From IMG/VR virus record IMGVR_UViG_2778261418_000002, positions 1-6,109 of that record: 6,109 nucleotides of DNA; one strand, given 5' to 3'. The number at the start of each line of letters is the position of its first letter. Position 1 is the stretch's first letter. The stretch is from a virus. Taxonomy: Duplodnaviria; Heunggongvirae; Uroviricota; Caudoviricetes. The notes beneath the pieces are model-generated. The model was given only the letters and a program-made list of their open reading frames with translations, searched no databases and was not told where the DNA came from. A program made the translations under genes and the position numbers. Below are positions 1,496-6,109 of the stretch, piece after piece.

Positions 1496-1918
1496 TCACA
1501 GTACCGCCTCCTGAAAATTACCCTGATAGAAAGCCAGTACACGCTGCATAGCTTCGCTCTTCCGGCACTCGCGACAGATTATATTCAGGCGCCTGTCGTA
1601 GCGGCGTATTTCTCCGTCTGGTAATGACCAGATAAGGTCCGGATCAACCGCAGATGGTTTCTTCGGCTTTGCCCTTGAGAGCTTTTTACGGGCATTTTGC
1701 CAGTCCTTACGCGCCTGTTCAGACGGGAATAACCCGTAACCAGAGTTGTATACATCGCCACTGGCAACCAGCTCTCTGGCCAGAACGCTCATCAGATATC
1801 TTGTTGCCCCAGTTTTAGTTTCCAGTTGTCGTAACGTCTCGCGCCCACTCTGGCGTACGAGTTCAACAACCTGCCCTTTAATTTTTTCCCGCTCTTCTTG
1901 TGTAAATACTTTTGCCAT
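1496..1918 (-). CDS. hypothetical protein with an HTH-like segment
   Basis: Track ORF 1496..1933 begins with TTG. Preferred start is ATG at 1918-1916 (MAKVFTQEEREKIKGQ...) with GGAGG 5 nt upstream. HTH-like segment GRETLRQLETKTGATRYLMSVLAREL; C-x2-C near the C-terminus (CRECRK). Confidence 0.55.
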   Translation of the reverse strand: MAKVFTQEEREKIKGQVVELVRQSGRETLRQLETKTGATRYLMSVLARELVASGDVYNSGYGLFPSEQARKDWQNARKKLSRAKPKKPSAVDPDLIWSLPDGEIRRYDRRLNIICRECRKSEAMQRVLAFYQGNFQEAVL

Positions 1919-1933
1919 AGGTGCCTCCGGCAA

Positions 1934-2704
1934 TCACTTTTCCGACACAATACGACTGGAGGAATCGAAAATCTGTCGGACAATATCCCGGTGCCTGTTC
2001 AGCTCCCGCAGCGCAGCGCAGACACGCTCCCACTTCTGGACATGATTTTTCGCCCGACGCAGTTCGCGGTTTGCCAAATGCAGCGATGGCAAAATCAAAT
2101 CATCAGCTCGCGTTGCAGTAAACGATGGCAGCGACTGCACAATGTCCGCTACAGTTTCTGTTTTAATATCTTCCTGTGTTGCAGCTTCCTGTACTGGTAA
2201 CGCAATGCCGGCTGGCTGAGGAAAGGCTTTACCATCATTCTCCGTTACCGATGCGACTTTCGGCTTTACTGGTAAATTCTCGCCCGGCATGCAGTAGCGA
2301 AATTTACCGTTCTGGTTTACGCGTGCCAGCCGCCCCGTTGCGGTTACTACCGCCAGCGTGGAAGCAACCTTGCGAGTGCTGACACCGAACTTACCCGCCA
2401 GTTCCTCACACGTTTTAGCGCCCTCCTGACCGATAAACCCAATCATCATGTCAGCGGTAACTTTTCGTTCGACCTCCCTGGTTAGCACATCCTGTACTTC
2501 AGATTGTGCTGGCTGCTCTTCGGCTACCCCGGATTCACCTTCACCAGCCACACGCCAGGTGTATACGCTTTTATCAACGAAGCCAGCCTTTTTCAGTTCC
2601 CACAGCTCGTTCAGTACTTCTTCACGACTGATATCAAGTCGCGCAGCCAGCTCTACCGACGTGGCTTTTCCCATCGCTTTCAGTGCGTCAAAAACAGTCT
2701 CCAT
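1934..2704 (-). CDS. phage protein with two winged-helix-like domains separated by an acidic linker (resembles prophage proteins I recall as DUF1627; unverified)
   Basis: Track ORF 1934..2704, ATG at 2704-2702 with GGAAGGA SD. N-terminal wHTH-like [43 protein letters not shown]; acidic linker; second wHTH-like [44 protein letters not shown]. Lies directly downstream of the P-like gene. Confidence 0.6.
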
Positions 2705-2736
2705 AAATTTCCTTCCGGTAAAAATTACTTCTCAAC

Positions 2737-3402
2737 TCAAACAAACCCAGCCGCTTTCCGGCGTTCATATTCCTGTTTCAGCAACTCAATTGGCGTTGGT
2801 CCCGCAGGACGTATGGGTGCTGCCAGTTGCCTACGGACGGGTGGAACACTCAGTCCGTTACCAACATGCTTTGCCCATTTCGTCAGCTGCCGTTCTGCAA
2901 GCCGTTTTAACTCCCCCTCGGTCATCTGCCGCTCAATCCCCTTTGAACGCATCTCGAGGCAAATGTGATACAGCACGGGCTGAGGCCACGGATATTTATC
3001 GCTTCCGTCGTATCGCCAGGACTCATTGCGCCAGCGGCGATATTCCTCCATCACGTTATCCACCGTCAGACCAAATGGATTTGCCCCGCTCTCCGAAATC
3101 AGCGCCACAAACTCAGCCAGGTCCGGAGGCCATGTTTCACCCGCCCGGCAGCGGTCCATGCACTGGCGGCAGACCTGCCGGATTTGCTGCTCAGTCATCG
3201 CGCCAATCTGTACAATCCAGAGCTTCGAAGGTGCGGCCCCGTTCTTCTGGGTCCAGCGGTTCGAATAAATCTCCCCCATGAGTTCCCACAGCTTCCAGGC
3301 AGTTTCCGTCGTTGATAAATCCGTTTTCACGTTCCCACTGCTCACGTGCTGCCCGAATTTCCTGAACTGCCCGTGATGCGGTGCCACCTGGTGCTGCTGC
3401 AT
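2737..3402 (-). CDS. replication protein P-like (lambda P family helicase loader)
   Basis: C-terminal two thirds align by eye to lambda P as I recall it ([19 protein letters not shown] / [13 protein letters not shown] versus lambda AESYPWKSNAHYWLVTNLY / TDAELRRKAADEL). ATG at 3402-3400 has a strong SD (AAGGGGG, about 6 nt spacing) but overlaps the O-like ORF by about 212 nt out of frame. Alternative in-frame ATG at 3198-3196 forms ATGACTGA with the O-like stop. Start uncertain. Confidence 0.75.
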
Positions 3403-4231
3403 GGTTTACCCCCTTGCTGACTGGTTTAGCCTGCGCCCTGACGTGATTTACGTGACGGGCGAATTTCTGCTCCCACTGAACCTGCGTGAAAACTTTACCC
3501 TCCGCTGCCCAGTAGTCCCGGAAGGCGGCAAGTTCAGCTGGTGTAAATTCCGGCTCCGGCAGAGCCACTCCCCACAGAGCCGCCCGTCGTCGAAAATCCG
3601 GCGACGGATGCCAGCCATCGGTCATCGGAAATTTCCCGATGGGTTCGCTCAGGCCTTCCAGGTAATCAGGTTCCGATGTTTGCAACGGCACGCCATTTGC
3701 CTCACTGACCGGAGCACTCTCGCGCACGCGCGCGTTATGTGTGGGGTTTAATTCTTTATCTGTATCTTTATCTGTCGTGACTCGTCGTGACATGTCGTGA
3801 CATATGCGTGACTCGTCGCGCGCCCCCTCATTCTGTTTTCGTAATTTTTCCCTCTCGCGCTGCGCTCTCTTGCGCTCTGCCGGGGATTTCGCGGTTTGTG
3901 AAACGTTGCCATTGTCCTCTTTCAGTACCTGGCGTTTTTCCCATCCACTGATCAAATCTCCATCAAGTACCCGCCCCTGCATTGCCTGTAAAATTGAATC
4001 AATTACTTCTTCCGTCACATCAAGCGCACTTGCTAAATCTTCCGTCGTGACATCAATGTGACCACGTAGTGACACGCCGTGACATGTCGTGACATTTCGT
4101 GACGCGCTCACCAGAAGGTGGATATACACAGCCATCACTGTTGCGATTGGCTGCCCTGACACCCTGGCAATTGTTCGCCACTTAGGGTCATTTGGCATGT
4201 CATGCCATAATCTGAGCCAGGCGTTAGCCAT
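3191..4231 (-). CDS. putative replication initiator (lambda O position; YdaU/DUF1376-like by recollection)
   Basis: Track ORF 3191..4237 begins with GTG. Preferred start is ATG at 4231-4229 ([18 protein letters not shown]...) with GAGGTG SD. Sits between the CII-like and P-like genes as O does in lambda. Contains two embedded GTGAC repeat arrays and an AT-rich block, as ori lambda lies inside O. The family name is from memory. Confidence 0.65.
3775..3812 (+). repeat. iteron-like array A: four direct (T)CGTGAC repeats at 10-11 bp spacing
   Basis: GTGAC at 3777, 3787, 3797 and 3808. Preceded by an AT-rich block with two ~11-bp direct repeats (tctttatctg, 3752-3774) and an alternating CG tract (3721-3734); followed by GCGCGCC. 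Confidence 0.55.
4044..4103 (+). repeat. iteron-like array B: six direct GTGAC-core repeats at 10-11 bp spacing
   Basis: GTGAC at 4047, 4058, 4069, 4079, 4089 and 4099, all in the same orientation. The motif falls in all three codon phases of the O-like frame (peptide [20 protein letters not shown]). Confidence 0.55.
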
Positions 4232-4302
4232 ACTCACCTCTTTTGATACCGAATCTTTTTACTCACAAATTGCCGGAAGTGATCTGGTATGAATATCGCG
4301 AG

Positions 4303-4728
4303 TCAATGCACAGCCACAATATTTCCTGCAGGGCCACCACGATTCATCTGGTTGAAACCAGCGATCGCCACTGCGACAAAATCATCAGCGTCTCTCACCA
4401 GTCGTTCCCGCGTCTCCACCAGCTCCCGAAAATAGGCTGAACTGTGGCTGCGCATTCGGGCCACCAGCAGAGGTGGCATTGCTTTTTCGATCGCTGGTAA
4501 CAACGCCTGAATTTTTTTAACCGCATCAGGGGTGTCTTTCTCCACCCAGCGGAATATTTTCTGAGTATTGCGAGCCAGGGCTTCCGGATGGCTGTCGTCA
4601 TATAGCTCCGGGAACGTCATACCAAGCTCAAAATAAGCCCGGGTTATTTCAGCTGCCGGAACTTTTTCACCGTCCGGATGCGCCCAGACATTCATCGCCA
4701 TGCGGATGTGTTCATGCTTGATTTTCAT
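4303..4728 (-). CDS. ydaT: YdaT-like protein (CII functional analog in Rac/CP-933P-type prophages)
   Basis: Track ORF 4303..4728, 141 aa. Begins MKIKHEHI and ends IVAVH, matching my recollection of E. coli YdaT in length and termini. Its ATG overlaps the stop of the Cro-like gene (TAATG). Occupies the cII position. Confidence 0.7.
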   Translation of the reverse strand: MKIKHEHIRMAMNVWAHPDGEKVPAAEITRAYFELGMTFPELYDDSHPEALARNTQKIFRWVEKDTPDAVKKIQALLPAIEKAMPPLLVARMRSHSSAYFRELVETRERLVRDADDFVAVAIAGFNQMNRGGPAGNIVAVH

Positions 4729-4940
4729 TAATCATTCTTTCCTTCGTTCGAGGTGCTATCCTGCTTCTTGTAAAGTTCTGGGTTGTATTTCAATTCACCG
4801 TTAGTAATTTCATCCAGTTCCATTGCGCGAAGTTTGGGAATAACTGCTTTCCACCGCACAACAGCCACATGTGAAATTCCAAGAGCCTCAGCTACTAGTC
4901 GCTTTTTTTTGAAATAGCGCAGAACATCATCTTTGAACAT
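4728..4940 (-). CDS. Cro-like HTH regulator (YdaS/DicC-like)
   Basis: Track ORF 4728..4940, 70 aa. ATG at 4940-4938 with AGGAG SD at about 6 nt. HTH signature KRLVAEALGISHVAVVRWK. First gene of the operon divergent from the repressor. Confidence 0.75.
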   Translation of the reverse strand: MFKDDVLRYFKKKRLVAEALGISHVAVVRWKAVIPKLRAMELDEITNGELKYNPELYKKQDSTSNEGKND

Positions 4941-4969
4941 AAAACTCTCCTGTTATTTCGAGCGGGAGG

Positions 4970-4983
4970 GTAACAATAGTTAC
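4970..4983. promoter_or_regulatory. operator-like palindrome GTAAC-AATA-GTTAC (proximal to cro)
   Basis: Perfect 5-bp inverted arms with a 4-bp spacer in the cro/cI intergenic region. Lies where the -10 of a leftward promoter would fall, given the perfect TTGACA -35 at 4996-4991 on the - strand. Confidence 0.45.
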
Positions 4984-5017
4984 ATAGAAATGTCAACCAT
5001 AGCAACATCACTTGGTA

Positions 5018-5031
5018 GTAACATTGGTTAC
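5018..5031. promoter_or_regulatory. operator-like palindrome GTAAC-ATTG-GTTAC (abuts repressor start codon)
   Basis: Same half-sites as the 4970-4983 site. Ends 1 nt before the ATG at 5032. Contains TAACAT, a possible -10 for a leaderless repressor transcript. Confidence 0.45.
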
Positions 5032-5706
5032 ATGAAAAACACTATCAGCGAACGTATTCGGAATCGTCGAAAAGACGTTGGATTAACCCAACAGCAGGTT
5101 GCGAAAGCAATCGGCATATCTCGTGTATCCGTAACAAAATGGGAAAATGGCTCTTCAAAACCTGACGGTGAGAATTTGCATCTACTGTCAAAATTGCTTT
5201 CCAAATCTCCTGAATGGATTCTTTATGGAAAGGACTGTCACGATAAAACCGATGATCTGCGTCTGAATCAGTACCCTTACATTAGTGACAACATCGCCCG
5301 GTTGCCCGTTTTAACGTGGGAACAGGCTGGTTATTGGGATATGAGTTGTCCAGTAACCGAGATTCCTGGTATTAAGAATTGGGTTGATGTCATGACAAAA
5401 ACCGCTGAAAACTCTTTTTTATTGCATGTTGAGGGAGATGCGATGACAAACTCTAACGGCCTCCCAACCATCCCCGACGGATCTACCGTGCTGATCACAC
5501 CATGCTCAAGTAACATTAGAGAACTGGTGGGAAAAATAATCTTAATCCAATTGGAAGGAACGCCAAACGTAACACTAAAAAAAGTTGCGATTGACGGACC
5601 AAACATCTATCTGTTGTCACTGAATCCGCTTTACAAACCCATCGAACTGAATGGTGGTTACACCATTAAAGGTAAAGTTTCACAAATACATCAATACTTA
5701 GACTGA
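5032..5706 (+). CDS. CI-like prophage repressor: N-terminal XRE-type HTH plus C-terminal LexA/S24-like domain with Ala at the nucleophile position
   Basis: Track ORF 4933..5706 begins with TTG. Preferred start is ATG 5032 (MKNTISERIRNRRKDVGLTQQQVAKAIGISRVSVTKWENG), which leaves both operators intergenic; ATG 4990 is an alternative. C-terminal domain aligns by eye to lambda CI/LexA: QAG at the Ala-Gly cleavage position, VEGDAM where lambda has VEGNSM and LexA VSGMSM, and TLKKV...LNPLY versus lambda TFKKL...LNPQY. Confidence 0.8.
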   Translation: MKNTISERIRNRRKDVGLTQQQVAKAIGISRVSVTKWENGSSKPDGENLHLLSKLLSKSPEWILYGKDCHDKTDDLRLNQYPYISDNIARLPVLTWEQAGYWDMSCPVTEIPGIKNWVDVMTKTAENSFLLHVEGDAMTNSNGLPTIPDGSTVLITPCSSNIRELVGKIILIQLEGTPNVTLKKVAIDGPNIYLLSLNPLYKPIELNGGYTIKGKVSQIHQYLD

Positions 5707-5711
5707 GTCAG

Positions 5712-5738
5712 AACCCGCATTCATTGCGGGTTTTTTAT
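5712..5738 (+). terminator. rho-independent terminator of the repressor gene
   Basis: 8-bp stem AACCCGCA / TGCGGGTT with loop TTCAT, followed by TTTTTTAT, 6 nt after the stop codon. Confidence 0.65.
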
Positions 5739-5768
5739 GCCCTCAAGTGTACCTTTTGCAACATTGTA

Positions 5769-5797
5769 TTGACTCTAATGGTAACTCTTGTTACCTT
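5769..5797 (+). promoter_or_regulatory. putative rightward promoter (PL-like) with embedded operator GGTAAC-TCTT-GTTACC
   Basis: TTGACT (5769-5774), 17-bp spacer, TACCTT (5792-5797; weak -10). The 16-bp palindrome at 5780-5795 has the same half-sites as the two operators in the cro/cI intergenic region and covers the spacer and -10. Confidence 0.4.
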
Positions 5798-5975
5798 AAC
5801 AACATACCAACCCACCCCGCCCCACAGAACGCAGGGCAATACTTCGAGTTACCAGGCAGTGGTCAGGGGGTAAGTAGCCAGCCCGAGGCGTAAGAACATG
5901 ACGGCAGGGTTCAACTTTAACTATGCAGCAGGTTTTTGTTCCGCTACCCCGGCGTTAAGGGGAAATGAGGTCAAC

Positions 5976-6109
5976 ATGGATACTATCGATCTTGGCAACA
6001 GCGAATCTCTGGTATGTGGCGTGTTCCCCAATCAGGACGGTACGTTCACCGCGATGACGTATACCAAAAGCAAAACGTTTAAAACCGAAAATGGTGCCCG
6101 TCGCTGGCT
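5976..6109 (+). CDS. hypothetical early-left gene, partial (continues beyond window end)
   Basis: ATG at 5976 with GAGG 5 nt upstream; frame open to the window end (MDTIDLGNSESLVCGVFPNQDGTFTAMTYTKSKTFKTENGARRW...). In-frame upstream ATG at 5898 is an alternative start. Resembles a small Rac-region protein I vaguely recall; no name assigned. Confidence 0.5.
   Translation, partial: MDTIDLGNSESLVCGVFPNQDGTFTAMTYTKSKTFKTENGARRW

Follow-up and report, generated by a model that had tools for sequence, protein, structure and literature searches.

The window analyzed here is the complete 6,109-nucleotide stretch of the IMG/VR virus record IMGVR_UViG_2778261418_000002 (Caudoviricetes), and our subject is the junction at which a cro-like gene meets a ydaT gene. 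Based on its gene content, the window represents the part of a lambdoid Escherichia coli prophage that governs immunity and replication; among genomes it is best matched by E. coli O126:H45 MIN10 (NZ_CP069677), with 99.1% for positions 1504-6109 of the window. All window genes lie on the minus strand except one, the CI-like repressor gene, which is on the plus strand. We propose that the junction probably carries a promoter resembling the lambda promoter for repression establishment (PRE), located beside a site (YdaT-box) for the CII analogue YdaT, whose gene follows that of a P22-type Cro. The features of the junction are the following.

4728..4940, minus strand: Cro-like gene from the open reading frame list, 70 amino acids, P22-Cro/DicC type, TAA stop at 4730-4728
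4303..4728, minus strand: ydaT gene, 141 amino acids, encoding a putative CII-like tetrameric transcription activator with a POU-like helix-turn-helix (HTH), ATG at 4728-4726
4726..4730, minus strand: TAATG stop/start overlap read from the sequence, base 4728 shared
4718..4735, both strands: YdaT-box, 18-bp inverted repeat, ATGATT-AATGAA-AATCAA on the minus strand and TTGATTTTCATTAATCAT on the plus strand
4754..4762, plus strand: predicted extended -10 element (TGcTATCCT), TGCTATCCT, of a PRE-like promoter pointing to the repressor gene
4737..4744, minus strand: Shine-Dalgarno-like sequence of ydaT, AAGGAAAG, with AAGGA at 4744-4740 in the last cro codons and 11 nt from AGGA to the ATG

The Cro-like and YdaT proteins

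The initial annotation had placed the two genes in the position of the lambda cro-cII pair and treated them as possible members of the YdaS and YdaT families. The position is as described: the pair is flanked by the CI-like repressor gene on one side and by O-like and P-like replication genes on the other, and ydaT lies between the cro gene and the replication genes. The second gene is also a genuine member of the YdaT family. Its product scores 39.1 bits against PF06254 (Pfam cut-off 21) and matches the profile phrog_163, ‘CII-like transcriptional activator’, at 1e-44. It aligns without gaps and over the full length with two solved YdaT structures, PDB 3C4R (~97% identical, E 5e-91) and PDB 8BT1, the YdaT of prophage CP-933P (84-85% identical, E 5e-80), and since these alignments begin at residue 1-2 they support the assigned start codon. 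In the DNA-binding domain (residues 2-96), 89 of 95 positions (94%) are identical to CP-933P YdaT, whereas the identity to Rac YdaT is 32% (range 32-34%). By analogy with 3C4R and 8BT1, the window protein would adopt a POU-like HTH followed by a long C-terminal helix and would form a tetramer.

By the Pfam threshold, the first gene does not belong to the YdaS family. Against PF15943 its product scores 18.6 bits, below the cut-off of 30, where Rac YdaS and CP-933P YdaS reach 107.7 and 46.2 bits, respectively, and BLASTP gave no alignment with Rac YdaS. It is instead a member of P22_Cro (PF14549; 59.5 bits, cut-off 30.2), matching model positions 2-59/60 with protein residues 3-60, and it also matches phrog_409. 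The protein aligns end to end, from residue 1, with the P22 Cro structure 1RZS (E 9e-12); together with an AGGAG Shine-Dalgarno sequence, this alignment supports the cro start.

The functional assignment of YdaT draws on three published studies, one of them on the Rac prophage (PMC11879457). In CP-933P, YdaS and YdaT were described as analogues of Cro and CII rather than as a toxin-antitoxin system, and YdaT was non-toxic and activated PRE933P, an otherwise silent promoter located between ydaS and ydaT (PMC8630535). The CP-933P protein forms a tetramer, contains a POU-like HTH and gives a footprint on 5'-TTGATTN6AATCAA-3' at the ydaS/ydaT border (PMC9986795). These accounts, and that of Rac, agree with the statement in the initial annotation that YdaT is a CII-like DNA-binding regulator and not a toxin.

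The names of the Pfam families, ‘YdaS_toxin’ and ‘YdaT_toxin’, suggest that the pair could instead form a type II toxin-antitoxin module, and Rac YdaS and YdaT are indeed toxic when overexpressed (PMC5700377, PMC5700373). However, the toxicity of Rac YdaT has been attributed to its activation of the host gene rcsA (PMC11879457), the CP-933P protein that is 84-85% identical to that of the window is a non-toxic activator, and the known YdaT structure is that of a DNA-binding tetramer. Moreover, the partner in the window is a P22-type Cro, and the genes sit between repressor and replication genes, as cro and cII do. On the basis of the published experiments and the genomic context we reject the toxin-antitoxin interpretation, which is almost certainly wrong for this locus. 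The labels ‘toxin YdaT family protein’ and ‘Rha family regulator’, found in thousands of E. coli genomes, would then denote CII-type activators of lysogeny establishment.

Among YdaT proteins that are only 32-34% identical to each other, the N-terminus MKIKHEHI and the C-terminal pattern GG...V.VH are invariant. A role of the conserved C-terminal tail as a protease tag, as in lambda CII, would be purely speculative.

The YdaT-box and the promoter beside it

A search for YdaT sites upstream of the repressor gene, suggested with the initial annotation, located one, and this site is the cro-ydaT junction itself (4718-4735). It is the single match in the window to TTGATTN6AATCAA with no more than one mismatch, compared to 0.04 expected. 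It has one mismatch to this sequence, that of the CP-933P OM site (PMC9986795), and its half-sites are those of the DNase-footprinted Rac YdaT-box, ATGATTCATGAAAATCAA (PMC11879457). The 6-bp spacer of the box contains the ATG of ydaT, and the Cro stop codon takes its T from the end of the left half-site and its two A from the beginning of the spacer. A second box-like sequence at 4289-4306 was rejected, as it has three mismatches, a level at which 4.3 matches are expected by chance; apart from it, no second box with up to three mismatches was found in the window. Within 28.6 kb of the MIN10 prophage, scanned at up to two mismatches, the junction box was likewise the sole match, and therefore we see no sign in that region of analogues of the lambda promoters PI or PaQ.

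For the comparison of junctions we used 80 IMG/VR loci with close relatives of the window YdaT, 80 IMG/VR loci with Rac-type YdaT and 7 genome loci. The latter came from an alignment-based scan of genome contigs, while the diversity was provided by IMG/VR and by tblastn against phage records. The box hardly varies among a total of 168 loci, which keep [T/A/G]TGATT-CATGAA-AATCA[A/G] at the ATG. The upstream genes of the same loci encode 51 distinct proteins with about 12 unrelated classes of 3' end, from the families YdaS_toxin, P22_Cro, HTH_3 and other HTH proteins. Since codons 2-4 of ydaT (AAA ATC AAG) coincide with the right half of the box, the N-terminus of YdaT is also under constraint at the DNA level. 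Nucleotide homology to sequenced Escherichia phages (91-93%) takes in the beginning of the O-like gene and the complete ydaT gene and ends at window position 4734 or 4784, so that the break falls at the box or just past it. For the cro-repressor module, 50,697 phage records yielded no close match. Thus, judging by these alignments, the box appears to behave as a joint between exchangeable immunity modules and a module of ydaT and replication genes.

Two loci of the comparison set come from metagenome-assembled genomes assigned to other taxa. A short contig of ‘Collinsella sp.’ carries an E. coli-type ydaT that is 98% identical to the window type, and a short contig of ‘Candidatus Nanosynbacter’ carries a Rac-type ydaT; both most likely represent E. 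coli prophage sequences misplaced in binning.

On the strand reading towards the repressor gene, the window contains the hexamer TATCCT at 4757-4762, 21 nt beyond the box. A hexamer of the form TAnnnT occurs 21 or 22 nt past the end of the box in 11 of the 12 cro classes, compared to a background of 0.024 per position (binomial P ~3e-14, to be read with the caution that the 12 classes are not all fully independent), and no other offset was found in more than one class. Strong hexamers stand alone (TATGAT in Rac, TACAAT in the CP-933P type), and the weak ones (TAGCCT, TAACGT, TATCCT and TAACTT) are preceded by TGn, which makes them extended -10 elements. The spacing is also kept in all four distant homologues (33-55% identity) that have a box, namely two Klebsiella phages, Stenotrophomonas phage BUCT708 and Pectobacterium phage ZF40. 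In the latter two, whose YdaT is 33% identical to that of the window, a CTGATT-N6-AATCAA box (positions 648-665 of the BUCT708 locus and 629-646 of the ZF40 locus) lies in the cro-cII spacer, 36-41 nt upstream of the start codon and not over the ATG, and TAnnnT again follows 21 nt beyond it. The conserved unit is therefore the box together with the -10 element, and not the box together with the start codon. The cII gene of HK639 was not counted as a further example of the family, as it gave a partial match and has no box.

The published reporter experiment places the CP-933P promoter in the same interval. We mapped the primers of the PRE933P-gfp reporter (Table S3 in PMC8630535) onto loci of the CP-933P type and found that the reporter fragment is 120 bp long, that its box is preceded by 18 nt and followed by 84 nt, and that its sole -10-like hexamer is TACAAT, located at offset 22; the forward primer F-PRE is identical to window positions 4700-4719. 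Since this 120-bp fragment gave YdaT-dependent expression (PMC8630535), the activated promoter of CP-933P must be proximal to the box.

In the window, the hexamer at the -35 position (ATTCTT, 4734-4739) is poor. If transcription begins about 7 nt after the -10 element, the start would be near 4768-4770 and the box would be centered at about -42, where activators overlapping the -35 region are classically located. The arrangement points to a promoter like lambda PRE that YdaT would activate from about -42 in a class-II-like geometry. In the switch that we consider probable, the promoter PR would transcribe cro, ydaT, O and P upon infection or derepression, and the YdaT tetramer would bind the box at 4718-4735 as its high-affinity site. 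From there it would activate a weak leftward promoter through the extended -10 element TGCTATCCT, and the resulting transcript would cross cro in antisense into the repressor gene. Following the logic of lambda PRE, this would establish repression and at the same time produce anti-cro RNA.

In addition to the incomplete independence of the cro classes, several points weigh against this proposal. A scan of positions 4200-6109 on both strands for consensus sigma-70 promoters returned none and hence gives it no independent support, as would be expected because the promoter would depend on an activator. The binding of the window YdaT to 4718-4735 is predicted from homology, that is, from the 94% identity of its DNA-binding domain to that of CP-933P YdaT. 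We found no mapped transcription start in the available portions of the CP-933P and Rac accounts. Finally, the Rac study credits a predicted promoter ~190 bp from the box (PMC11879457), and the OM site of CP-933P is said to contain ‘an alternative transcription start’ (PMC9986795), which does not match the geometry proposed here.

The Rac account leads to a rival explanation, in which the leftward promoter activated by box-bound YdaT is a remote one, like the PracR4 proposed in Rac, at ~190 bp from the box and within or close to the 5' part of cro. It draws on a 29-fold, box-dependent activation in a reporter that contained the predicted PracR4, and on a mutation in the PracR4 -35 element that relieved interference with the promoter PydaST (PMC11879457). 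However, the same reporter also includes the proximal TATGAT at offset 21, and PracR4 was predicted by software, with no test under YdaT induction described in the available part of that account. Moreover, a 120-bp fragment was sufficient for YdaT-dependent expression in CP-933P, and a distant promoter would not explain why the spacing of the -10 element is kept across unrelated cro genes; we consider it improbable. The same low probability applies to the idea that the box is mainly an autoregulatory operator, at which YdaT, bound over its own start, would block transcription from PR into ydaT, O and P and so limit YdaT and the replication proteins. The box does cover the ydaT start and the DNA next to the Shine-Dalgarno sequence, and a tetramer able to hold two duplexes could form a loop or a roadblock (PMC9986795). 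Nevertheless, expression of Rac ydaT was the same with the wild-type and the mutated box over the range of YdaT induction (PMC11879457), and the Stenotrophomonas and Pectobacterium phages keep the -10 spacing even though their boxes lie upstream of the start codon. The box-proximal promoter activated by YdaT is thus the reading that we prefer.

The stop/start overlap

The minus strand of the junction reads ...GGA AAG AAT GAT TAATG AAA ATC AAG..., with TAA at 4730-4728 and ATG at 4728-4726, so that the shared base 4728 reported in the initial annotation is correct. Stop/start overlaps of 1 or 4 nt are frequent between co-directional phage genes. Among the 168 loci, the upstream stop lies at -4 nt relative to the ydaT ATG (ATGA) in 75 and at -17 in 60, the latter having an upstream protein with the tail ...LIHENQA; in 28 loci of the Rac type it lies at +22, and the position -1 is seen in the window alone. 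Relatives with the same Cro encode a 71-amino-acid protein ending in ...GKNDS with an ATGA overlap, and the common form of the junction is ...GAT TCA TGA / ATGA. The window differs from them by a single C to A change in the box spacer, which turns the serine codon TCA into the stop codon TAA. In a search of IMG/VR with 27-mers sharing the same cro 3' end, TAATG was present in 2 contigs and ATGA in 98. The TAATG overlap is therefore a rare single-letter allele of the ATGA junction and is not conserved.

The initial annotation had read the overlap as a sign of translational coupling and of a fixed stoichiometry of the two proteins. The overlap is real and coupling is plausible; a fixed stoichiometry does not follow from it. 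In favor of termination-reinitiation that would fix the Cro:YdaT ratio, ribosomes that finish cro stop at the ydaT start, the upstream stop overlaps or enters the first ydaT codons in 136 of 168 loci (-4, -17 and -1), and the spacing of the AGGA in the window is rather long (11 nt), so that reinitiation could matter more here. However, the position of the stop is variable, with three overlap geometries in addition to the 22-nt gap in Rac and gaps of 36-60 nt in distant homologues, and TAATG is the minority allele (2 versus 98). The ydaT gene also has its own ribosome-binding signal, a well-spaced GGAG 7 nt before the ATG in most other alleles, and RNA folding of the junction mRNA gave no structure that masks the ydaT start or enforces coupling (z = +1.15). 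Furthermore, coupling alone does not give a fixed stoichiometry, and the invariant sequence is explained by a DNA site. It is thus rather doubtful that the overlap serves to link the translation of ydaT to that of cro: termination-reinitiation may occur, and it is neither a required nor a conserved feature.

The junction is invariant because it lies inside the YdaT-box with its adjacent -10 element. Since the box is invariant and the upstream genes are exchanged, the C-terminus of Cro is whatever its reading frame encodes on entering the box. Seen across the compared loci, the overlap would thus be a by-product of whichever cro frame runs into the box, and it should not be taken as a stoichiometry device. 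The junction leaves no room for nutR or a tR1 terminator between cro and ydaT, and ydaT should therefore be transcribed whenever cro is. The only terminator-like matches were at 4460-4477 (plus strand) and 5093-5076 (minus strand), both within coding regions and at chance frequency.

The facing repressor, flanking genes and known systems

Beyond the junction, the window contains the following features that bear on the switch or on replication.

5032..5706, plus strand: CI-like repressor gene (HTH_3 and Peptidase_S24 in Pfam), divergent from cro, annotated as ‘LexA family protein’ in MIN10
4970..5031: putative right operator (OR) region, with GTAAC-N4-GTTAC palindromes at 4970-4983 and 5018-5031 and a degenerate site between them (repeat families D3, I2 and I5)
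5781-5794: matching putative left operator (OL) site, GTAAC-N4-GTTAC, downstream of the repressor gene
4237-3191, minus strand: O-like replication initiator gene, product with a DnaT domain

The repressor was predicted to be non-cleavable in the initial annotation, and the alignment bears this out. It lacks the serine nucleophile of S24 peptidases (G-[DEN]-S-M): Ala137 (GCG, 5440-5442), within the motif GDAM, stands opposite Ser149 of lambda CI in the alignment to 3BDN. The other elements of self-cleavage are retained, as Ala99-Gly100 (5326-5331, context EQA99-G100YW) corresponds to the lambda cleavage site A111-G112 and Lys183 (5578-5580, context LK183KV) to the general base K192. In LexA and CI proteins, loss of the nucleophilic serine abolishes self-cleavage. 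The serine is present in 72 of the 76 database homologues with a recognizable G-[DE]-x-M motif. Within this immunity type, GDAM is the majority form (87 of 91 IMG/VR loci, the other 4 having GDSM); it is also present in a 70%-identical Salmonella homologue, and more distant homologues have GESM or GDSM. A literature search for prophage repressors with a natural serine to alanine replacement gave nothing relevant, and the annotation of the 28.6 kb of the MIN10 prophage includes no antirepressor. If the prediction is correct, the switch operates with a naturally non-cleavable repressor, and RecA-mediated cleavage of this repressor would not be a route by which the prophage is induced. The majority status of the alanine form points to widespread lambdoid prophages that share this property.

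From their position, the GTAAC-N4-GTTAC palindromes likely represent the OR and OL operators. The palindrome at 5018-5031 abuts the repressor ATG at 5032. With the RefSeq start, which corresponds to 4990 and gives 238 amino acids, the open reading frame would include operators, and 5032 therefore looks like the better start; like lambda cI, the repressor gene may be leaderless.

On the minus strand, the O-like gene is followed by a gene for a lambda-P-like helicase loader and then by DUF1627, DUF977 and small open reading frames. Inside the O-like gene, the heptamer CGTGACA forms clusters on the plus strand at 3786-3802 and 4046-4094, with 5 copies on one strand compared to 0.79 expected. These clusters resemble origin iterons within an initiator gene, as in lambda. 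In the MIN10 genome, ydfA/ydfB/ydfC/dicB-like genes, exo and int come after the repressor gene, and downstream of the replication genes there is a gene for the toxin HokD (hokD). The MIN10 integrase and DUF977 genes are annotated as frameshifted, and this prophage copy may therefore be defective.

The fixed spacing of 21-22 bp bears on the location of the YdaT-activated promoter, a point on which the CP-933P and Rac accounts disagree. Whether box, 21-22 bp and -10 element form a family-wide functional unit, from E. coli to phages of Klebsiella, Pectobacterium and Stenotrophomonas, in which a proximal class-II-type PRE is kept while unrelated cro genes are swapped against it, is a proposition that we regard as evenly balanced. 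If it is true, the model of activation from a distance via PracR4 in Rac would need revision, and the box would double as a recombination joint that dictates the tails of the Cro proteins (...VDS, ...LIHENQA, ...ND).

Among the closest known systems is prophage CP-933P (Sp12) of E. coli O157:H7 (PMC8630535; PMC9986795; 8BT1). Its 18-bp site, which differs from that of the window by one half-site base and one spacer base, is also located at the border of the cro-like gene and ydaT, and its -10-like hexamer is at offset 22. The upstream gene, however, encodes a 100-amino-acid YdaS (PF15943) with an ATGA overlap, in place of the 70-amino-acid P22-type Cro with TAATG, and the repressor is PaaR2, followed by the toxin-antitoxin genes paaA2-parE2, whereas the window has a CI-like HTH and S24 repressor with the serine to alanine replacement. 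The racR-ydaS-ydaT locus of the Rac prophage in E. coli K-12 shares the half-sites ATGATT/AATCAA, the ATG in the spacer, the N-terminus MKIKHEHI and a TATGAT hexamer 21 nt beyond the box, and there the box is needed for the 29-fold leftward activation towards racR (PMC11879457). In contrast to the window, Rac ydaS ends 22 nt before ydaT without overlap, and Rac YdaT has further targets in the racR-ydaS intergenic region and at host rcsA (PMC11879457), where the window has the junction box alone.

Among Cro proteins, that of the window is related to P22 Cro and DicC (PF14549; 1RZS; NF007282), with an end-to-end alignment to P22 Cro and the same position divergent from the repressor gene. It scores 56 bits against the DicC model, below the NCBIfam cut-off of 130, and in P22 the gene that follows cro is c1, of the lambda CII type, and not ydaT. 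The ydfA/B/C-dicB-like genes on the PL side of the matching genome are like those of Qin.

The lambda cro-cII-PRE arrangement, to which YdaT systems were compared in PMC8630535 and PMC11879457, has in common with the window an activator gene after cro, a site at the 5' end of the activator's own gene and a promoter reading backwards through cro into the repressor gene. However, lambda CII recognizes direct repeats, TTGC-N6-TTGC, flanking the -35 element, whereas the YdaT site is an inverted repeat centered further upstream; nutR and tR1 lie between lambda cro and cII, whereas the window genes overlap; and no sequence similarity between lambda CII and YdaT is detectable. The system as such has already been described in CP-933P and Rac, and the window represents a known YdaT module joined to a different Cro/CI immunity module. 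To these accounts our analysis makes a modest addition, namely that the sequence of the junction is dictated by the YdaT-box and that the fixed distance from the box to the -10 element points to a box-proximal PRE.

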